The notes: generated by a model from the letters alone, not told the origin. Counted from the stretch's first letter, positions 4,696 through 36,589 are shown. The stretch: 64,000 nt of DNA from an uncultured Anaerolineaceae bacterium (GCA_964409045.1 CAYPBU010000002.1:3160-67159); one strand, 5' to 3'. A program made the numbers and translations.

Positions 4696-6177
4696 ATGAT
4701 GAAGAAAATTGAAGGGAATGAGGTCTGGTTTGTTGTGGGTTCGCAGCTCTTATACGGCCCCAAGGTTCTTGAGACTGTGGCAACGCGCGGCCAGGAAATG
4801 GCATCATTTATTGATTCAAAAGAAGACATTCCCTGTAAATTTGTCTATAAAGGCACAATCAAGTCGAACGAAGAAGTCACCGCGATCGTCAAACAAGCAA
4901 ATTACGATGATAACTGCGTCGGAATCGTTGCCTGGTGCCACACCTTCTCTCCGTCAAAGATGTGGATCAACGGGTTGAACCTGTTACAAAAACCCTATTG
5001 CCATTTTGCTACCCAATACAACCTCCAAATTCCTAATGAAGAAATCGATATGGATTTCATGAACCTCAATCAGGCTGCCCATGGTGACCGCGAGCACGGC
5101 TTCATCGGGGCGCGAATGCGTCTGCACAGGAAGGTCATCGTCGGGTACTGGAAGGATGAAAACGTCCTGAAAGAGTTGGGGGGATGGATGCGGGCCGCGA
5201 TTGGGTACAAAGTTAGCCAGAACCTTTCCGTTGTCCGCTTCGGGGACAATATGCGCGAGGTGGCAGTCACCGAAGGCGATAAGGTCGAAGCGCAAATCAA
5301 ATTAGGCTGGCAGGTCAACACATGGCCGGTTGGCGAGCTTGTTGCTGAGATCAGCAAAGTGACTGATGATGAAGTGCAGGCGAAAGTCAATGAATATATG
5401 GCAGAATTCCAACTCGACACGGATGATCTTCACGCCGTGACTTATCAGGCCAAGCAAGAAATAGCCATGGAGCGCATCCTGCAAAGGCAGCACGCGGATG
5501 CATACACCAACACCTTCGAAGATTTATGGGGATTGGAAGAGCTTCCAGGTATTGCGTCGCAGCACTTAATGTCCCGGGGTTATGGCTACGGAGCGGAGGG
5601 CGACTGGAAGACCTCCGCCATGGTCCACATCATAAAAGCAATGGCGCAGGGGCTCAAAGGCGGCAGCTCCTTCATGGAGGATTACACCTATCATTTTGAA
5701 GAGGACGACGGTTACTCGCTTGGTGCCCATATGCTCGAAATTTGCCCATCCATTGCAGCGTCGAAACCGCGCATTGAAGTTCATCCGCTTGGAATTGGCG
5801 GTAAAGAATCCCCAGCCCGCCTTGTGTTCGAGGGGCACGAGGGCAAAGCGGTTGTCATTTCTCTGATTGATATGGGAGGAAGGCTGCGGCTCATCGTGCA
5901 GGATATCGAGTGCGTCAAGCCGATCATGGAGATGCCCAACCTGCCCGTTGCCCGGGTGATGTGGAAAATCAAGCCGAACCTGCGGGAAGGGATCAAACAG
6001 TGGATCACAGCCGGCGGTGCCCACCATACCGTGTTGACCTATGATGTGACCCCGGAGATGCTTGAAGCCTGGGCTGAAATTATGGATATCGAGTTTGTTC
6101 ACCTCACTGAAAATACAACCAGCGAGGAATTAATCAAGGAACTCCGTGTCAACGACTTGCTCTGGAAATTGAAATAA
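4696..6177 (+). CDS. araA: L-arabinose isomerase
   Basis: 493 aa, with 'EVWFVVGSQLLYGPKVLETV' at the N-terminus and 'AHGDREHGFI', 'GYGYGAEGDWKT' and 'GAHMLE', all characteristic of AraA. Confidence 0.9.
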   Translation: MMKKIEGNEVWFVVGSQLLYGPKVLETVATRGQEMASFIDSKEDIPCKFVYKGTIKSNEEVTAIVKQANYDDNCVGIVAWCHTFSPSKMWINGLNLLQKPYCHFATQYNLQIPNEEIDMDFMNLNQAAHGDREHGFIGARMRLHRKVIVGYWKDENVLKELGGWMRAAIGYKVSQNLSVVRFGDNMREVAVTEGDKVEAQIKLGWQVNTWPVGELVAEISKVTDDEVQAKVNEYMAEFQLDTDDLHAVTYQAKQEIAMERILQRQHADAYTNTFEDLWGLEELPGIASQHLMSRGYGYGAEGDWKTSAMVHIIKAMAQGLKGGSSFMEDYTYHFEEDDGYSLGAHMLEICPSIAASKPRIEVHPLGIGGKESPARLVFEGHEGKAVVISLIDMGGRLRLIVQDIECVKPIMEMPNLPVARVMWKIKPNLREGIKQWITAGGAHHTVLTYDVTPEMLEAWAEIMDIEFVHLTENTTSEELIKELRVNDLLWKLK

Positions 6178-6271
6178 AGTGCTCGAGAAAACAAGAAAGC
6201 AAGTGCTGAGAGTTAACTTACTTTAGCAAAAATCGAACTGCTAAAGTTCGCCTAGATAAACATCTCCGATA

Positions 6272-6302
6272 TTGATAGTGTATATTACTATACTGTTATA
6301 AT
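6272..6302 (+). promoter_or_regulatory. Putative sigma70-type promoter for the island operon
   Basis: TTGATA (6272-6277) is followed by an extended -10 TGtTATAAT (6294-6302). The 19-nt spacer is longer than optimal. It sits about 55 nt upstream of the 6358 start, which has the RBS AGGAAAGGGG. Confidence 0.3.
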
Positions 6303-6357
6303 TGGATAAACAATATCGATATTTTGTCAATAGACTCTTTAGGAAAGGGGTCCTTGC

Positions 6358-8187
6358 ATGCCAAATCAGCCAACTCTTCAAGGGTTTCGGATAGATGGAA
6401 CATGGAACTTTGATAGAACATTGATTTGGGTAGGTGCTGGGATTTCTTATCCAACGCCAACTTGTTTGCCTTTAGGATCAGACCTTACCGCTTTTACACT
6501 AGAAGAAACTTGTGGGGCGTTAATTTCAAAAAAGATCCTTCGAGTTTGGGATAAAGTGACTAAAACTGCCCTTATTCGACAAGGAGTTGAACTTGGCCAG
6601 ATCCCGAGGTTAGAGGCAATTTTAGATGTTATCAGAAAATCTGAGATAAGTTTTTTACCTTCGACATATTCGTTTTTCTCAGGATTTCATGCTTTTGCTT
6701 TAGCGCCACCAAACTTCATTCATTACCATCTGGCAACCTTAATCAATGAAGGTGCAACTGTCATTACACCCAACTTTGATCTTTGTATAGAAAAAGCATG
6801 GGAATACTTGTTTGAATCCGCAACAATTACATCTACGACGGAATTTGGCTTAATTAGGAATTATCTGGGCAATAAATCCATGAACGGCCAAGTTTGGCAC
6901 TACCACGGTATTGGCACTGATCCTGATACGTTAGGTGCAACTGTCATGTCCATTAAAGCGGGATTCTCACAAGACCTAAAGAATCACTTGATTGAAAAAA
7001 TAAATAGATGTGAGACAGTCATTTTTATTGGTTACAGTTTTTCTGACGGTTTTGATGTCAATCCGTTTTTCCTCTCCTTGCCTGATAGTTTTTTTGATCA
7101 CACTAAGGCGATTTTTATAAAGCATGTCAATGGAGAGCAGTTATCAAAACTTTCTACTCCTATCAACGCTTTCGAATCTCAGTGGCATGATTTAAAAAGG
7201 ATTAAAAGAGTGTTGGCATGCTTCACAATTGTTGAATTTTACCAAGGTGATACTCGCAACTTTTTTGATGAAGCAAAAGTGGAAGAAGTCACTACTTTTG
7301 ATTGGAAAAATACCTTTAAATTGCAATCAAAATTATCGGATTTGAAAATAGTAAAACCATTGATGATTTGCTCATTGACAAATTACCTTGGTTTTAATGT
7401 AAACCTCATTCAGCCAAACATCACTAGAAGGGTAAGAGAAAATAGCCAACATTATGATAAAGTTTTCTTCATAGATCAATTGACACAAGCATTACGACGA
7501 CAAGGTCTTTCCGTTTTTGAGAAGAAGTATCATCTTGAAAAGGCCGGTGAACTTGGAAAGACTGACTTGTTAGGTTATTACTACTCACGTAGTAATTACT
7601 CAAAGGCCCAAGAGTATGCAGTTCCGCTAGAACTAGTGGAAGCCTCCATAAACAATTCCGAGCAGGAACTAAGTTGGGTTCAATTCACATCTCTAGCTTC
7701 ATATTGCCGTCCAATAGTAATGCACTACGTACAGTATTTTTTTGAGAGACATGTGAGCATAAAACATAAATCTATGATACGAGACTTACAAGTCATTCTT
7801 GGCAAAATTAACTCAAAATCTTTACAAAGTATCCTTAATGTAAACCAGTTAGGCACTTCATTACGCTTCCAATTTCTCTTTCACACCCTTGATAATAATG
7901 GAGATATTAGCAATGCTTTATTGAGGAGGGCAATTGACATTTATTCTGAGAATACCAGCATTCCAGGCTATATCAGCGTATTTCGTGACATAGCTATTAA
8001 CTACTTTCTGGCTGCAAAACTATTTGGACGGAAGGATTGTTTTTCCGACTCTTTTAAATATGCAAAGACATCCTTACTCATCGCACATGATGTTTTGGAT
8101 ATTCCAGGATTCCTCAGAGCTTTATCAGTGTTAATTTATATCGGGGTCGAGAAATTCCTTTCATTTGTATTAAGGAATAACGAATGA
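6358..8187 (+). CDS. SIR2-like (SIR2_2-type, predicted NAD+-consuming) protein with an uncharacterised helical C-terminal half
   Basis: The ordered motifs are 'VGAGIS' (res 25-30), 'VITPNFDLCIE' (N139/D141), 'VWHYHG' (H183) and 'VIFIGYSFSD' (res 221-230). This is the same arrangement as the defence-type SIR2 domains of ThsA and DSR2. Residues from about 290 to 609 are helix-rich with no motif I recognise. Codon usage is AT-rich. Confidence 0.7.
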   Translation: MPNQPTLQGFRIDGTWNFDRTLIWVGAGISYPTPTCLPLGSDLTAFTLEETCGALISKKILRVWDKVTKTALIRQGVELGQIPRLEAILDVIRKSEISFLPSTYSFFSGFHAFALAPPNFIHYHLATLINEGATVITPNFDLCIEKAWEYLFESATITSTTEFGLIRNYLGNKSMNGQVWHYHGIGTDPDTLGATVMSIKAGFSQDLKNHLIEKINRCETVIFIGYSFSDGFDVNPFFLSLPDSFFDHTKAIFIKHVNGEQLSKLSTPINAFESQWHDLKRIKRVLACFTIVEFYQGDTRNFFDEAKVEEVTTFDWKNTFKLQSKLSDLKIVKPLMICSLTNYLGFNVNLIQPNITRRVRENSQHYDKVFFIDQLTQALRRQGLSVFEKKYHLEKAGELGKTDLLGYYYSRSNYSKAQEYAVPLELVEASINNSEQELSWVQFTSLASYCRPIVMHYVQYFFERHVSIKHKSMIRDLQVILGKINSKSLQSILNVNQLGTSLRFQFLFHTLDNNGDISNALLRRAIDIYSENTSIPGYISVFRDIAINYFLAAKLFGRKDCFSDSFKYAKTSLLIAHDVLDIPGFLRALSVLIYIGVEKFLSFVLRNNE

Positions 8188-8708
8188 TCTTATTCCATGG
8201 CACTACAGCTGAAAGAGCCAAACGCATTTTCAAGGAAGGTTGCGTTAACAAGGATAGCGGCAAATTTTATACCCGACAAGAAAATGGGGATGGATACACA
8301 ACGGACGGCTTTATCTATCTATCAACTGAGTTGACTTTAGCAATATATTTCGCTAATTGTCACACCTTGGTGGATAAATCCACCTCGATTTTTATTTTCA
8401 AGTTTGACATCCCACTTAACTTAATCGAGCCTGACTTTGATGAACTGCGTCATCAAGGCGCGACCCGAATCTTAACTGATTATTACGGTGGGGAATTGGA
8501 ATGCAGTCTGCAAGAACATAAATGTTGCCGTGTCGCATTGAATATATGCTTTGGCTCATTTCAAAGTAGTTACATTGAGATTGAACTGCCTAAATCGCGA
8601 ATAAATGAAATTGTTGGATCCGTTGGACTAAATCTTAGTGATACATTGCGGTCCTATTCTGATTATCAAAAAGAATGGATGCAAAAAATTTCCTGGAATC
8701 AGTTATAA
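8184..8708 (+). CDS. Small protein with a minimal ADP-ribosyltransferase-like (Arr/DUF3990-like, H-Y-[E/D]) motif pattern
   Basis: The start overlaps the upstream stop (ATGA at 8184-8187). The motifs are 'MILFHGT' (H5), 'GFIYLSTELTLAIYFA' (Y45, Y55) and 'IFIFKFDIPLNLIEPDFDE' (E82/D84/D86). Their order and spacing mirror Arr ('FYHGT', 'IYFSALMEPAVWGA', 'IYIVEPTGPFEDDPN'). The fold call is inference only. Confidence 0.45.
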   Translation: MILFHGTTAERAKRIFKEGCVNKDSGKFYTRQENGDGYTTDGFIYLSTELTLAIYFANCHTLVDKSTSIFIFKFDIPLNLIEPDFDELRHQGATRILTDYYGGELECSLQEHKCCRVALNICFGSFQSSYIEIELPKSRINEIVGSVGLNLSDTLRSYSDYQKEWMQKISWNQL

Positions 8709-8821
8709 GTGATTTTTGGATATTAAGCAAAAACCTAATTGAAACATACCATTTTATAAGTAGTAATAAATCTTATAATGTTGAGTAAGAAAACGGTCTA
8801 CATATTGAGATAAGGAGAAAT

Positions 8822-9406
8822 TTGAAAATATTTATTATGGGATTAACAGCTTGTGGGAAGACAAGGCAAGCGAAAAACATAGCAGAACATTTTGGCTTGA
8901 CTTATATAGGTGGATCCCAGGTCTTATTGTCTAAATTAGGTTTTGAAGATAACTCAATAGATCATTTTTGGTTAGATACTATTGGTAATCAAATGAACAC
9001 TATTAGAGACGATTCGGATAATGACATACTCGTTGATAATTATCTTCTAAATAAAGCCACTAGAGAAGAAGATCTCGTTTTTGATTCATGGACAATTCCT
9101 TGGCTATATTCTGGGGCAGACGTAATAAGAGTCTATCTTCAACCAACCTTAGAATTCCGTGCAAAATTAGCATATGTCTCGAAAACTAATAAGTGTTTTA
9201 GTGTTGATGAACTAATGAGATTAATTACGATAAAAGACGAGGAAAGTAGGAAAAGGTTCCTAAATCTATACGGTTTCGATATATATGATACTAGTATTTT
9301 TGACATAGTATTTGATAATACCTTGCTCGAAAAACAAGAGACATCATCCATCTTGATCAAACGAATTTCTGAATTATTGAGTACCAACAATGTACAACCT
9401 AAGTAG
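8822..9406 (+). CDS. P-loop nucleotide kinase, cytidylate-kinase-2-like family
   Basis: A TTG start follows the RBS AAGGAG (8812-8817). Walker A is 'GLTACGKT' (res 7-14). 'VYLQPTLEFRAKLA' and 'EESRKRFLNLYGFDIYDTSIFDIVFDNT' resemble archaeal-type CMP kinases. Confidence 0.6.
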   Translation: MKIFIMGLTACGKTRQAKNIAEHFGLTYIGGSQVLLSKLGFEDNSIDHFWLDTIGNQMNTIRDDSDNDILVDNYLLNKATREEDLVFDSWTIPWLYSGADVIRVYLQPTLEFRAKLAYVSKTNKCFSVDELMRLITIKDEESRKRFLNLYGFDIYDTSIFDIVFDNTLLEKQETSSILIKRISELLSTNNVQPK

Positions 9407-10255
9407 AGCTAGCAGATCAAAGTCATATCATAAGCCATCATAATTTCCCCTTCAGATCAAGATTGCTTTGATTCAATAGTTTGACTACGTTTGTTTAAAT
9501 TCCTCTGTTAATTACTTTGGCCTGATGAATTCAAAAAACGGACAACTGGAAGTTCAGGAGTTTGGTTTTTTTGGTTTCTCCCTTGCAACCTAAAGGTCGT
9601 CGTTGCATAGGCTCCCAGCTACTGATCTTTGAATTCCAGGTCGTCTTAGTTAAGTCGTTTACCCTGTTTCGCGAGGCATGGCAAATACCTCGGCGGGAGT
9701 AACTCCACTCTCTACTAATAATGTACCTTTCCAAAAAGTTTCAAACATTTTCAACCCATCTCCAATGAATCAGAAGAGCCTGGGAAGGGCTAATGCAAGC
9801 TACTCCCAGTTTCCAAAGGTTGAATTGGCTGAAGGGACTGATCATGTTGGCGGAGTGAGCATAGTAGAAATCTTCGCTCTTTGTGATGGCAATCCTCTTA
9901 TCCAGCTAGTCCAAATCCCTACCGTCAAGATCCTGAGTTTTGAGTGAACTGCGAGCACTGGCAAATACCCGCAAGGGGTACTGCGTCGGCTATCTGCCAC
10001 TATAAGGTGAATATTCTATCTACACATCGCGACGGATTTGCTAGCTGCGTTTTGCCATGATTACAAACCATTACTTTTGATAGTAGTAATAGACCTGTCA
10101 AATTAGTCAAATTGGCTATTGGAATTGTTTATGGGTTGACGATCAGAAGACTAACCGATATATTTCTCCTTTGCAGCAGGTTATCGACAAGGATACTTAC
10201 ATAACCGAGAATGAATGTGAATCAACGAATAAGTCATCAGCACCTAATTCTTCGG

Positions 10256-10278
10256 TATAATAGTTGCATAAGGCAACC
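10256..10278 (+). promoter_or_regulatory. -10 box plus candidate MarR operator
   Basis: TATAAT (10256-10261) is immediately followed by AGTTGCAtaagGCAAC (GTTGC-N5-GCAAC, 10262-10278). A near-identical site lies at 16405-16421. Confidence 0.4.
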
Positions 10279-10293
10279 GATTGGCAAAATTTT

Positions 10294-10743
10294 ATGAAGC
10301 AAAATCAACACGCACAAATCGATCACCTTCTTTTCCAGGTGTTACGTACCATCTTTCACTACGAGCGTAGTATTGCCATGGATTACGGGCTGGACTTTCA
10401 GCAGATCTATGCCCTCCAATTTCTGCGCCGGCATCCCAGCGCGCGCCTCACCGAGATTGCAGAAGAAATGGAGCTGCCCAAATTCACCGCCAGCCGCCTG
10501 CTAAACCGGTTGGTGGAAGTAGGGTATTTATCCAAAACCCAAGACCAAACCGACCGCAGGAATTATCACCTTCACCTTGAAGACAAGGGAGAAGGTATCC
10601 TTCAGGATATTGAAACCGCGAGTTATACCCGAATCTCAACCAACATCGAGGGTTTTTCTCCTGAAGAAATTAGTGAGCTCTATGAGGTTGCCGAGCATTT
10701 GCCCAAAGTCTTGGGTGTGACCGAAAAAGTTAAGGGTCACTGA
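10294..10743 (+). CDS. MarR-family transcriptional regulator
   Basis: The winged-helix region 'LTEIAEEMELPKFTASRLLNRLVEVGYLSKTQDQTDRRNYHLHLEDKG' is typical of MarR. I prefer the ATG at 10294 to the TTG at 10264, which lies inside the operator. Confidence 0.85.
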   Translation: MKQNQHAQIDHLLFQVLRTIFHYERSIAMDYGLDFQQIYALQFLRRHPSARLTEIAEEMELPKFTASRLLNRLVEVGYLSKTQDQTDRRNYHLHLEDKGEGILQDIETASYTRISTNIEGFSPEEISELYEVAEHLPKVLGVTEKVKGH

Positions 10744-33979: not shown

Positions 33980-34021
33980 TCAGTCTGACACAAGGAAGAA
34001 TCTCCTGGCAGACTGCCAAAG

Positions 34022-36589
34022 TCATTTACCTGCCTGATCCAAAAAGCTGGCAACCCAAACCAGTGGCGCGTTCCAGTTGATGGCGACTTCGTTGGTTGTG
34101 TACGATTGCAGCTCGTCCAAATAGCGCTTTGAAGGCGGCTGGCTTTTGAGGTCTGCCGCATCGGAGGGCGGATCGGCTGGGTTGAAGTTGGGTCCGCCAG
34201 AGAGCGCACCGGGAGGCGGTGCGGGGAAACCGCGCGCTGGGTCATTTGCCCAGAAGCGGTGGTGCGGATGTTGCATCGGATACGAGCCATATCCCGCGAC
34301 AAAGCTCTTGTTCAACGCGTTTCGCCCCAGGATGTAATCCATACTCAGCCGAACGCTGTCCAGATAGCGCGCATCGCCTGTGAGTTTGTGCGCCATGCTT
34401 GTCAGCAGCATGTTGTTCATGATGAGACCGTTCGAGCCCCAGGGGTAATCTTCATCAATCAACACCCGGTAGCCATCTTTTTCCTGTACCTTGATCAGCT
34501 CATCAGCGTAAGCGATGACCGCCTGTTGCAGGGCGGCTTTTTGTTCAGCGGAAAGCGAGGTTTCTTGCGTCAGCAGGGAGATGGTGCCCAGGGGCGCCAC
34601 ATGCCCCCAATCAAAGGCGTCTGCCGCGGCAAACTCCGGTGAACTGAGTAGGAATTCCTTAAACTCATCTTTACCGGTGGTGATGAACAGCTCTGAAGCT
34701 GCCCAATAGAATTCATCACTGAGGTTTTCATCCGGATAATTTCCACCTCCCACGCCAGGGGTGTTCCCAGCGTAGATATTGGGGTTCTCCAGCGCGGCTT
34801 TCCAGGCGGTTTCGGCTGCTGCCAGGCATCTGTCAGCAAAGGGTTGATCGAGACCGATCCAGATGCGCGAGCACTGCGCCGCGGTGGCGGCAAGGTTGAG
34901 CGTTGCAGCCGTACTTGGCGGGAACAGGTAGCGCCCCTGGCCGGGCAGCGCGTGGTCGTTATCGTTATTCACTTCGGTGGGGGGCACCACGGGCATCCCA
35001 GCCCATGATTCGTCGTGGAGTTTGTGATGCGCCATGCCGGCTTTTGGCTGCCCCTCGGGCACCTGCATCGCCAGCAAAAACTCCATTTCCCAGCGGGCTT
35101 CATCCAGCAGGTCAGAGATGCCGTTGCCCTGCTCAGGGATCATTTGTGAGCCGTCAGGGAAGCCTTCCCAGCCCTGTTCGTAAAGATTCAGCAGGGTCCA
35201 GACGGTGATTCCGCCATTGACCACGTACTTGCCAAAATCACCAGCGTCGTACCAACCGCCGAGGGCATTGAGCGTGTAGTCGCAACCAGGCCAATCGACA
35301 CCATCTGCATCTGTACCCTTGTAACAGGTCACATTGGCGTCGGTCACGTGCCCCGCGGGGCGCGCCAAATCCTTACCGGCATATTTTTCTTCGATTGCGA
35401 CGCCGCTGCGGTTCAGGTAAAAATAGGTCAGGGCGTCATGTTTGAGGCGGGTGAAGAGGTCATCAGCTATCTTAAAAGGAACGCTTGTCAATCCCGCGGC
35501 TTCCAGGGTGTAAGCTTCGCCGGGCTCTGTGTAGACCGAAAAGTCGATCTCGTGCAGATTGTCGCCGGAGTTGGCATCCTTTCCTTTATAAGTGGTGAGA
35601 CCGCTGAGCACTTCTTCACCAGCAGCGGTTTTCAGTACCCAGTTTAGTGGTTCAGTGGCATCGGATGCGACCAAAGCGATCTTGATGGCGTTCGCGGAAT
35701 ACCCCACCTGGTTGACGCTCACCAACGGCGGAATCACTTCCGGACCCGGGGTGGGGGTAGGCTCAGCCGCGGCGGCAACCACGCTCGGTTGCGGGATGTC
35801 CGTCCTGCCGAGTTCGAAGAAGAGCGCTCGGCCGAACAACCTGGGGTTCTGCCACGAGGTGTCATTGGTGTCAGCGTTTGACCAGATCAGCTTGATGTCC
35901 CGGTCCTGGGTGGAAGCGCCATTAATTTGCGCCTGAAAGCCGAATTCCTTACCGTGGGTTACTTCGAGAAGATCTTTTAGCGACAGCGCAGCTTCAAAGC
36001 CCCAGCCGTCGTTGGTTTTAAAGACGAATCCGCTTACTTTCGCATCCGAGCTGAAGACCCCTGTGATCGTCAGCTCGTTTGGATCAGTGTTTCCGATATC
36101 GGACGCATTGAGATTCACCTGCATCATTTTCAAGGAGTAAGAGGTGGCGCTTAGGTCGCCGGAAGCGTTGATATAAAATTCCATCGAGTCCTCATTCCAG
36201 AACTCCGTACCGTGCTTGCCCGTTATGATGGTCTTATCCGGCATTTGCATGGTAATGTAGAGGTTCTCCAGGTCAGCTGCGAGTGAGAACGTGAAAGTCC
36301 CGTTTTCGGCAGGATCTGCTGAGGGCGTGGGACCCCGATCGACTAAAATCACGGGTAGGTCTGCCCAATCTGAAAGGTCACCATCTATGGTAATTTTCAC
36401 AGGGAAGGGCACGTAAACCACTTCACCGCTGATCTCAGCGGGAACAGACAGGGTTTGTTCTGGAGCAGCAGGTTTGGTCACTTGATCCTCCTGGGGTATT
36501 TCGGCAGTGGGAGACCCACCACAAGCTGATAAAGCCAGTGTAAAAGCTATAAAGACCATGAGTAGAACTTTCAGGGATATTTTCATCAC
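34022..36589 (-). CDS. Glycoside hydrolase family 9 endoglucanase with an N-terminal CBM9-like module and an Ig-like module
   Basis: The GH9 motifs are 'GGWYDAGDFGKYV', 'HHRFW' and 'YTTNEVAINWNAPLV'. The N-terminus has 'FWNEDSMEFYINASGD' (CBM9-like). The lipobox is 'LALSAC'. Confidence 0.9.
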   Translation of the reverse strand: MMKISLKVLLMVFIAFTLALSACGGSPTAEIPQEDQVTKPAAPEQTLSVPAEISGEVVYVPFPVKITIDGDLSDWADLPVILVDRGPTPSADPAENGTFTFSLAADLENLYITMQMPDKTIITGKHGTEFWNEDSMEFYINASGDLSATSYSLKMMQVNLNASDIGNTDPNELTITGVFSSDAKVSGFVFKTNDGWGFEAALSLKDLLEVTHGKEFGFQAQINGASTQDRDIKLIWSNADTNDTSWQNPRLFGRALFFELGRTDIPQPSVVAAAAEPTPTPGPEVIPPLVSVNQVGYSANAIKIALVASDATEPLNWVLKTAAGEEVLSGLTTYKGKDANSGDNLHEIDFSVYTEPGEAYTLEAAGLTSVPFKIADDLFTRLKHDALTYFYLNRSGVAIEEKYAGKDLARPAGHVTDANVTCYKGTDADGVDWPGCDYTLNALGGWYDAGDFGKYVVNGGITVWTLLNLYEQGWEGFPDGSQMIPEQGNGISDLLDEARWEMEFLLAMQVPEGQPKAGMAHHKLHDESWAGMPVVPPTEVNNDNDHALPGQGRYLFPPSTAATLNLAATAAQCSRIWIGLDQPFADRCLAAAETAWKAALENPNIYAGNTPGVGGGNYPDENLSDEFYWAASELFITTGKDEFKEFLLSSPEFAAADAFDWGHVAPLGTISLLTQETSLSAEQKAALQQAVIAYADELIKVQEKDGYRVLIDEDYPWGSNGLIMNNMLLTSMAHKLTGDARYLDSVRLSMDYILGRNALNKSFVAGYGSYPMQHPHHRFWANDPARGFPAPPPGALSGGPNFNPADPPSDAADLKSQPPSKRYLDELQSYTTNEVAINWNAPLVWVASFLDQAGK

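Follow-up and report, generated by a model that had tools for sequence, protein, structure and literature searches.

The 64-kb stretch of DNA analyzed here (64,000 nucleotides from an uncultured Anaerolineaceae bacterium, GCA_964409045.1, CAYPBU010000002.1:3160-67159, referred to below as the window) carries at positions 6358-9406 three co-directional genes, which, on balance, can be regarded as a small horizontally acquired defense islet. The first of these, ORF1 (6358-8187, + strand, ATG start), codes for a 609-aa protein that consists of a SIR2_2-type domain with predicted NAD+-hydrolyzing (NADase) activity, followed by a TPR-like helical domain. ORF2 (8184-8708, + strand, ATG start) encodes a 174-aa protein with the ADP-ribosyltransferase (ART) fold and an H-Y-D signature, and ORF3 (8822-9406, + strand, TTG start) encodes a 194-aa P-loop kinase of the Cytidylate_kin2 type. 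The TGA stop codon of ORF1 and the ATG start codon of ORF2 have the sequence ATGA (8184-8187) in common, which gives a 4-bp overlap, and the ribosome-binding site of ORF2, AAGGAA (8172-8177), is located 6 nt upstream of its start codon. An original prediction, made from the sequence alone, had described this trio as an undescribed NAD+-centered defense module; its coordinates, the common direction of the three genes, their position in an AT-rich island, and the ATGA overlap were all confirmed.

The low-GC islet that contains the three genes (6178-10263, no strand) lies between araA and a MarR/aldehyde:ferredoxin oxidoreductase (AOR) cluster and has a GC content of ∼0.33-0.42, compared to ∼0.50 in its flanks. 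The ORFs themselves have a GC content of 33-39% (29-38% at third codon positions), as opposed to 51-52% (54-62% at third positions) in the flanking araA and AOR genes. This islet is the sole low-GC dip of the window, as all other 2-kb bins have a GC content of at least 44%. Given that all three ORFs show the same low GC, a single acquisition of the entire trio would fit these data. The flanking genes have housekeeping functions: on the 5′ side, sugar uptake and related roles (a branched-chain-type permease, an ABC ATPase, an FGGY kinase, and araA), and on the 3′ side, MarR, AOR, ferredoxin, and a DUF362 protein. In agreement with the original prediction, no TIR, SLOG, HerA, pAgo, STAND, or macrodomain gene is found nearby. 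A search of the islet for signs of mobility did not reveal a tRNA gene, an Rfam family, an integrase gene, or a convincing flanking direct repeat.

The N-terminal part of ORF1 (6415-7257, + strand, approximately aa 20-300) is a SIR2 domain of the Rossmann type. The Pfam domain SIR2_2 (PF13289) is recognized in aa 134-231 with a score of 30.6 bits (gathering cut-off, 24.5; E value, 4e-7). Protein searches detected 27 further clusters of this family, ∼12 of them full length and 30-54% identical to ORF1. In the 28 aligned sequences, residues G26, A27, G28, S30, N119, H122, T137, N139, D141, H183, G225, D230, and D233 are invariant. These are exactly the residues of the four SIR2_2-type motifs (GAGxS, TxNFD, HxHG, and GYSxxD) that had been read, in this order, in the original prediction, and they include the catalytic Asn139 (codon 6772-6774), Asp141 (6778-6780), and His183 (6904-6906). 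The AlphaFold model of ORF1 (predicted local distance difference test [pLDDT] score of 88.6, predicted template modeling [pTM] score of 0.87) shows a Rossmann domain up to approximately residue 300 and nothing other than helices thereafter, as expected from the helix-rich character of this sequence. The C-terminal ∼300 aa (7303-8181, + strand, aa 316-608) are modeled as an all-alpha solenoid, mostly with pLDDT values of ∼84-98, and this domain, presumably a sensory or regulatory one, is retained in the 12 full-length relatives.

In a Foldseek comparison of the ORF1 model with the PDB, the best matches were EcThsA (top), DSR2 (second), Avs5, and KomC, so that the expected SIR2 fold is supported by both profile and structure searches. 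The helical half matched domain III of MalT, 14-3-3 proteins, and the TPR subunits of APC/C. More distant relatives of ORF1 have only the SIR2 half in common with it and contain different C-terminal halves of similar length, which is the usual pattern of an effector fused to variable sensors. Based on its fold and family, ORF1 can be assigned to the SIR2_2 defense-type sirtuins, with NADase as its predicted activity; it is a new compact (∼600 aa) variant of the known class of sensor-fused SIR2 NADases. PADLOC searches with ORF1 and its relatives returned only weak, domain-level matches to SIR2 or LmuA models, and accordingly, this compact SIR2-TPR-like subfamily is not among the systems covered by the PADLOC models of 2023. 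No members of the ORF1 family were found in an IMG/VR scan, the tblastn search against plasmids produced only a distant SIR2-domain match in Ralstonia megaplasmids, and no description of a “SIR2-TPR” defense system was found in the literature.

The relatives of ORF1 are mostly encoded by solo genes, often beside other defense or mobility genes. Their neighbors include type I restriction-modification (R-M) genes, a Cas6-RT-Cas1 gene, Schlafen/AlbA_2 and DUF5131 genes, a fragment of an AAA_13 gene, an integrase gene, and an integrative and conjugative element. In one metagenomic locus (L032:750-6716), a relative with 31% identity is found ∼1.5 kb downstream of the gene for a Cas6-RT-Cas1 fusion protein. 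Another protein, the 614-aa P0017 (L056 to L059, 6001-7845), which has only the SIR2 half in common with ORF1, is encoded inside a conjugative element with genes for a MobL relaxase, a Toprim primase, and a type IV secretion system coupling protein. Several metagenomes yielded this element, among them at least one (a Hadza sample) from the human gut.

As had been proposed from its sequence, ORF3 is a P-loop kinase of the cytidylate-kinase-2 type. The Cytidylate_kin2 domain (PF13189) is recognized with 39.9 bits (cut-off, 28), and the Walker A motif GLTACGKT, with the codon for Lys13 at 8858-8860 (+ strand), is intact. The P-loop residues Gly7, Gly12, and Lys13 and several arginines are invariant in the family. 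The TTG start codon of ORF3 is preceded by a ribosome-binding site, AAGGAG (8812-8817), in the ORF2-ORF3 spacer (8709-8821, + strand); in a relative, the same N-terminus, MKIFIMGLT, begins with an ATG codon. The model for the archaeal (d)CMP kinase, TIGR02173, aligns with ORF3 from end to end with a score of 60.7 bits, which is below its equivalog cut-off of 102.1 bits, and the PADLOC model of the viperin-kinase fusion (pVip) gives a weak match over the whole kinase (E values of 5e-4 for ORF3 and 7e-7 for a relative). A PDB sequence search with ORF3 returned nothing useful, and the kinase profile produced only a weak cytidylate kinase match in the same database. A weak alignment of the ORF3 family with a bacterial CMP kinase of known structure places its SWT residues opposite GRD of the DGRDIG stretch. 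We take this GRD stretch to be the part of the enzyme that binds CMP, so that the substrate of ORF3 does not have to be CMP. ORF3 had no tblastn match in plasmids, and its family was not found in the IMG/VR scan.

The ORF3 subfamily comprises four clusters in the whole protein collection. Kinases of the second cluster, 70% identical to ORF3, are encoded ∼220 bp 3′ of the SIR2 gene in the 8 contigs of the SIR2 lineage nearest to ORF1. In the third cluster (54% identity), the kinase gene lies 37 bp upstream of the gene for a 326-aa TIR protein (L050:1078-2668, also found in L051); this pair comes from a groundwater metagenome contig and adjoins an oppositely oriented small gene for a PIN-domain protein. 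The N-terminal domain of the TIR protein is of the CBASS/Pycsar type, as judged from its matches to CAP12-PCTIR_TIR in Pfam (1.8e-27) and to the CBASS TIR (3.5e-51) and PycTIR (1.5e-40) models in PADLOC, and is followed by a ∼170-aa C-terminal region without an assignment; a search of this protein with the ORF1 profile detected no common domain. The fourth cluster is found on short contigs that are bounded by a fragment resembling an insertion sequence transposase, as judged by eye. Hence, the kinase is encoded beside an NADase-type effector in every informative lineage, and these effectors belong to two unrelated folds. The swapping of effectors around a conserved partner is typical of defense systems. 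In addition, ∼80 bp 5′ of the kinase start are partly conserved across lineages with different upstream genes (window 8709-8821, L006:2213-2428, and L052:500-637). No description of a defense pair that combines a cytidylate kinase with a SIR2 or TIR protein was found in the literature.

These observations bear on the simplest interpretation of the locus, that of ordinary housekeeping genes for a sirtuin-type deacylase, a CMP kinase, and an unrelated small protein. The Pfam names alone suggest such roles, and some relatives of ORF1 are indeed found among metabolic genes. However, SIR2_2 is the defense-type branch of the sirtuins, and the deacylase CobB ranks far below ThsA, DSR2, Avs5, and KomC in the Foldseek output for ORF1; ORF3 falls short of the (d)CMP kinase equivalog score and, in the weak alignment, has SWT in place of the presumed CMP-binding GRD; and the base composition of the islet is foreign, with a patchy distribution of the families involved. 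Housekeeping functions for these genes are therefore extremely improbable.

ORF2 itself had no matches in Pfam, NCBIfam, PADLOC, or the PDB sequences, and a word-index search returned only ORF2. Exhaustive protein searches defined a family of at least 119 clusters at E values of ≤1e-3, most of them 170-190 aa long. Among 61 aligned members, Leu3, Tyr4, His5, Thr7, Thr39, Gly42, Tyr45, Phe72, Asp86, and Glu87 are at least 90% conserved, and Asp84 is invariant, so that the family signature can be written as LYHGT / GYVYLT / PDxDE. The key residues occupy the positions seen in the H-Y-[EDQ] ARTs, with the His in the first strand, the Tyr in the second, and the acidic residue after the third, the strands being taken from the model. 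Scanned singly against Pfam, family members gave a series of matches, all of them sub-threshold, to PARP (5 members), Tox-ART-HYD1 (4 members), DUF3990 (2 members), ART-PolyVal, Arr-ms, and PTS_2-RNA. The AlphaFold model of ORF2, built from the family alignment, has a pLDDT of 96.4 and a pTM of 0.91. In the Foldseek comparison with the PDB, 23 of the 24 top places were taken by ARTs, including cholera toxin A1, the heat-labile toxin (LT), TreTu/TreX, DarT, and Scabin; the only exception was CC0527, a structural genomics protein without a functional name. Sequence searches of the PDB with ORF2 and with its family profile gave nothing useful.

Among viral protein models, the best matches of ORF2 were paralogous proteins of Bacillus phage G (E value, 6e-8), and phage proteins annotated as DarT, Arr, and RNA 2′-phosphotransferase were also retrieved. 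At least 10 ARTs have been reported in phage G, and most of the ARTs found in phages are members of the H-Y-[EDQ] clade (PMC9503650). Inspection of the longer members of the ORF2 family (P0072, P0049, P0062, and P0094) did not reveal any informative domain fusions, and no description of this type of ART was found in the literature. The ART fold and the H-Y-D signature of ORF2, anticipated as an H-Y-[E/D] pattern, can thus be accepted on the basis of the model and the family alignment, and ART activity is predicted. The earlier choice of Glu82 as the catalytic acid did not hold: since Asp84 is invariant in all 61 sequences and Asp86 and Glu87 are nearly so, Asp84 is more likely to play this role than Glu82. 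The codons of the proposed signature residues are 8196-8198 (His5), 8316-8318 (Tyr45), and 8433-8435 (Asp84), all on the + strand.

Relatives of ORF2 are often carried by mobile elements. Matches to phrog_13493, a phage protein family without an assigned function, were obtained for 38 of the 61 aligned members, and 27 IMG/VR contigs contain ORF2 relatives; the scans of IMG/VR and of the collected loci were made with alignments smaller than the 61-sequence one. The scan of the genome collection yielded only two short contigs of metagenome-assembled genomes, and tblastn of ORF2 against GenBank phages found no match. Two distant relatives (27-28% identity; L018:8001-8531 and L019:8001-8543) are encoded in lambdoid-type prophages on the opposite strand, between the gene for antiterminator Q and genes for lysis or packaging. 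One of them is flanked by a spanin gene, and the other by genes for an anti-repressor and a terminase. Morons are classically found at this position. A further prophage contig, L074, contains both an ORF2-family moron (4896-5525) and, 3.2 kb away, a SIR2_2-type ORF (8744-10339). The latter was considered as a potential partner of the ART and rejected: it is an unrelated SIR2_2 protein, with 23% identity to the SIR2 domain of ORF1, and is separated from the moron by opposite-strand genes. In a sister phage, L073, this variable slot is occupied by a different gene, and the two L074 genes are read as separate cargo genes rather than an operon.

Other members of the ORF2 family are embedded in defense operons or carried by plasmids. 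One relative (44% identity) is encoded directly after hsdR-hsdM-hsdS and before an integrase gene. Another one, P0033 (40% identity), is part of a type I R-M operon, where its gene begins 3 bp after hsdS and ends 31 bp before hsdR (L061:178-4696, also in L062 and L063); the hsdR assignment was verified by comparison with the HsdR subunit of EcoR124I (5e-31). A tblastn search with P0033 retrieved 81 plasmid records, of which 74 were conjugative and 71 came from E. coli. As an example, the 181-aa “hypothetical protein” UIV26846.1 is encoded, in opposite orientation, within the tra region of the E. coli IncK2/Z plasmid pSTEC399_1 (CP061251.1; L087:6974-7519); hhalign assigned it to the ORF2 family profile with 99.7% probability, and it retains the signature in the form LFHATT / GWIYLS / PDTDD. 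In two contigs (L013:1295-2926 and a contig of GCA_016648615.1), the gene for P0031, a 41% identical relative, precedes those for a 543-aa protein without Pfam matches, a 366-aa AAA+ ATPase, and a protein of 335 aa; this cluster may represent another uncharacterized operon.

No separate immunity gene accompanies the ORF2 relatives in these R-M and plasmid loci. Together with the mostly phage- and plasmid-borne nature of the family and the translational coupling of ORF1 and ORF2, which is reminiscent of toxin-antitoxin pairs, this could mean that ORF2, derived from a mobile element, has an anti-defense or regulatory role and restrains ORF1 through ADP-ribosylation or antitoxin-like binding. Given that most relatives of ORF1 have no ORF2-like partner, ORF1 does not appear to need an antitoxin, and the conservation of the catalytic H-Y-D residues argues for an enzyme rather than a binding protein. 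Such a restraining role for ORF2 is improbable.

The solo occurrence of most ORF1 relatives and the presence of ORF2 relatives on their own, as prophage morons and plasmid cargo, would also be expected if the three ORFs were independent single-gene defense or cargo genes that lie side by side without any functional coupling. The kinase gene is preceded by a ribosome-binding site of its own and by a region that is partly conserved, and defense genes are generally known to cluster without interacting. Nevertheless, the 4-bp overlap argues for co-translation of ORF1 and ORF2; a kinase that forms only four clusters is unlikely to be found by chance beside NADases of two unrelated folds in every informative lineage; and the tight placement of P0033 between hsdS and hsdR suggests that members of the ORF2 family depend on a partner. 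Complete independence of the three genes appears rather unlikely.

At the other extreme stands the module as it was originally conceived, a single pathway in which SIR2, ART, and kinase proteins would form one NAD+-centered system, either by synthesizing or phosphorylating a nucleotide derived from ADP-ribose (ADPR) or by combining NAD+ depletion with ADP-ribosylation of a target. The common direction, the same low GC, and the overlap of ORF1 and ORF2 all fit this scheme, as do the intact catalytic residues of all three proteins. Conservation of the trio was analyzed in a set of 87 loci, which were searched by tblastn and with profile hidden Markov models of all three proteins. The complete trio was found only in three contigs, intact at the same locus, with proteins that were 100% identical to those of the window except for a single residue of ORF3; these contigs come from the same organism in other sequencing runs. 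The original prediction had named the lack of synteny of the three genes in any other genome as an observation that would refute the module. Because the trio was seen solely as identical copies of one locus, the proposal of an integrated three-gene system is not supported in that form, and the earlier headline of an “undescribed NAD+-centered trio” was too strong.

The surroundings of the related genes point in the same direction. In the nearest SIR2 lineage (54% identical to ORF1, 8 contigs), the kinase gene is present and ORF2 is absent; in one of these contigs, the next gene encodes a GmrSD-type restriction protein. The sister SIR2 lineage, 73% identical to the former and 52% identical to ORF1, has neither ORF2 nor the kinase. 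The tblastn and profile searches also detected neither of them, and no recurring neighbor, beside at least 13 more distant ORF1 relatives, and none of the ORF2 relatives shares an operon with a gene for a SIR2 protein or a kinase. The existing links are therefore pairwise: SIR2 with the kinase in two lineages, the kinase with TIR in one lineage, and the ORF1-ORF2 overlap only in this locus. Besides, enzymes with the nucleoside monophosphate (NMP) kinase fold act on terminal monophosphates, and ADPR lacks such a group. An integrated system of three components is, in our opinion, quite unlikely.

Several additional features of the islet deserve mention. A promoter-like site, TAAACA-18-TATATT (6257-6286, + strand), is located 5′ of ORF1 and was recognized by its match to the consensus; in a scan for promoters and terminators, the numbers of sites did not exceed those expected from shuffled sequences. 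The ribosome-binding site of ORF1, read in the sequence, is AGGAAAGGGG (6341-6350, + strand). The 857-bp tail that closes the islet (9407-10263, no strand) has an intermediate GC content of 41.7% and contains no credible ORF and no Pfam or Rfam match; it may be a decayed remnant of the inserted element. Elsewhere in the window, the GC content peaks at 57.3% in positions 34001-36000, compared to ∼50% in other regions.

Taken together, these data lead us to view the locus, with moderate confidence, as a horizontally acquired mini defense islet that consists of a SIR2 NADase core and two accessory genes of separate histories. The kinase gene accompanies NADase genes in several lineages, and ORF3 is most likely a sub-clade partner. 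ORF2 is inserted next to ORF1, and translationally coupled to it, in this lineage only, and most likely represents a lineage-specific add-on. As in DSR1/DSR2, ThsA, Avs5, and KomC, ORF1 would probably act by sensing a phage cue with its helical half, whereupon its SIR2 half would hydrolyze NAD+ and abort the infection. ORF3 would most likely produce or remove a phosphorylated nucleotide that gates or tunes the NADase, for which Kongming offers a precedent. ORF2 would most likely serve as a second NAD+-consuming effector that was drawn from the pool of mobile elements and that its partner restrains, in the same way as PrrC is restrained.

A number of observations weigh against this scheme. The absence of the kinase from the sister lineage, 73% identical to the one that has it, indicates that it is dispensable for the SIR2 protein, and the partly conserved upstream region suggests that the kinase may have its own promoter and be transcribed separately. 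The link between the kinase and NADases rests on only two independent partner types, and the two SIR2 cases share ancestry. The structural matches of ORF2, with probabilities up to 1.0, have modest TM scores, only 0.4-0.45 in the PDB and 0.5-0.57 among viral models, and its plasmid and phage relatives could be anti-defense rather than defense genes. Several ORF1 relatives are found in plain housekeeping surroundings, and a SIR2 NADase and an NAD+-consuming ART encoded in one operon would compete for their substrate.

Two bolder proposals concern the kinase-NADase pair, as a two-gene immune module, and the widespread small H-Y-D ARTs of phrog_13493, as latent back-up effectors. In the first, the kinase would detect a phosphorylated nucleotide that serves as a cue or make it, for example, from nucleotides that are phage specific or depleted, and NADase effectors of the SIR2-TPR or the TIR-X type, which would be interchangeable, would be activated by this cue. 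The kinase module would then correspond to the kinase step that Kongming takes from the phage, except that the host would encode it. The ARTs, by analogy with PrrC, would plug into type I R-M or SIR2 operons and fire once their partner has been neutralized. These bolder proposals are unlikely. Their starting points, the kinase-NADase pairing and the defense-embedded ART family, appear, judging from sequence comparisons, to be real leads, each with few independent cases.

SIR2 NADases are a major class of anti-phage effectors, and the control of their short sensor-fused forms, such as the compact subfamily described here, is poorly known. If pairing with the kinase controls the firing of SIR2 or TIR NADases, it would constitute a non-cyclase route to nucleotide-based immune signaling. 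As for the ORF2-type ARTs, the copies on E. coli conjugative plasmids make this family easy to study.

As stated in the original prediction, the locus does not match any named system: PADLOC produced only weak domain-level matches, and no Thoeris, HerA, pAgo, STAND, or Kongming partner is present. ORF1 resembles DSR1/DSR2, which are likewise single polypeptides, with a SIR2 NADase at the N-terminus followed by a helical sensor, and are usually found solo in defense islands. However, the PADLOC Dsr1 model has 1,227 positions and the matched DSR2 chain has 943 residues, compared to 609 aa in ORF1. ORF1 did not match the PADLOC Dsr models, and one relative gave a weak match in the SIR2 domain only (E value, 3.5e-7). 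The likeness to DSR2 is at the fold level only, with the C-terminal half of ORF1 resembling TPR, MalT domain III, and 14-3-3 proteins. Similarly to Avs5 (SIR2-STAND), a structural match, ORF1 joins a SIR2 effector at the N-terminus to a repeat sensor at the C-terminus, but it is too short for, and has no P-loop family match indicative of, a STAND/NOD NTPase, and in the model, the SIR2 domain is directly followed by the helical repeat. Thoeris ThsA has the SIR2 fold in common with ORF1, with EcThsA as its top structural match and NAD+ depletion as the expected output, but ORF1 lacks the SLOG (STALD) domain, and neither the islet nor its flanks contain a ThsB TIR gene. Unlike SIR2-HerA, ORF1 is not adjoined by a HerA gene, its neighbors being araA, ORF2, ORF3, and MarR. 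Unlike SPARSA (SIR2-APAZ/short pAgo), the locus contains neither pAgo nor APAZ; a relative of ORF1 weakly matches Aga_SIR2 in the SIR2 domain (E value, 7e-5).

The ORF2 family shows the same order and spacing of the His, Tyr, and acidic residues as Arr, DarT, Tox-ART-HYD1, DUF3990, and the phage G ARTs. It differs from these minimal H-Y-[D/E] ARTs in that no Pfam ART model is significant for ORF2 itself and in having a PDxDE motif of its own and ∼90 additional aa at the C-terminus. In its genomic placement, the family resembles PrrC of EcoprrI, another small effector encoded inside a defense operon: the hsdS-ART-hsdR order of P0033 corresponds to the position of prrC in EcoprrI, and ORF2 similarly overlaps the SIR2 gene. 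The PrrC protein, encoded within a type IC R-M operon, is a latent anticodon nuclease whose activity is blocked by the enzyme complex (PMC3874165), whereas ORF2 has the ART fold.

For the kinase, two comparisons can be made. The viperin-kinase fusions and the CMPK2-viperin pair likewise tie an NMP kinase of the cytidylate kinase type to an antiviral enzyme; the partner in those cases is a radical-SAM viperin, as opposed to a SIR2 or TIR NADase in the ORF3 family, and the match to the fusion model is weak (7e-7 to 5e-4). Kongming, similarly to the locus described here, has a SIR2 NADase effector, KomC (TM score of 0.51 on the KomC side). The matched KomC chain is a 264-residue SIR2 protein without a long helical C-terminal half such as that of ORF1, and the KomA adenosine deaminase and the KomB HAM1-like pyrophosphatase are both absent from the islet. 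In Kongming, an NMP kinase step makes the dITP signal for the SIR2 effector complex (bioRxiv 10.1101/2024.12.20.629578). That kinase belongs to the phage, whereas the ORF3 kinase is encoded right beside the effector.

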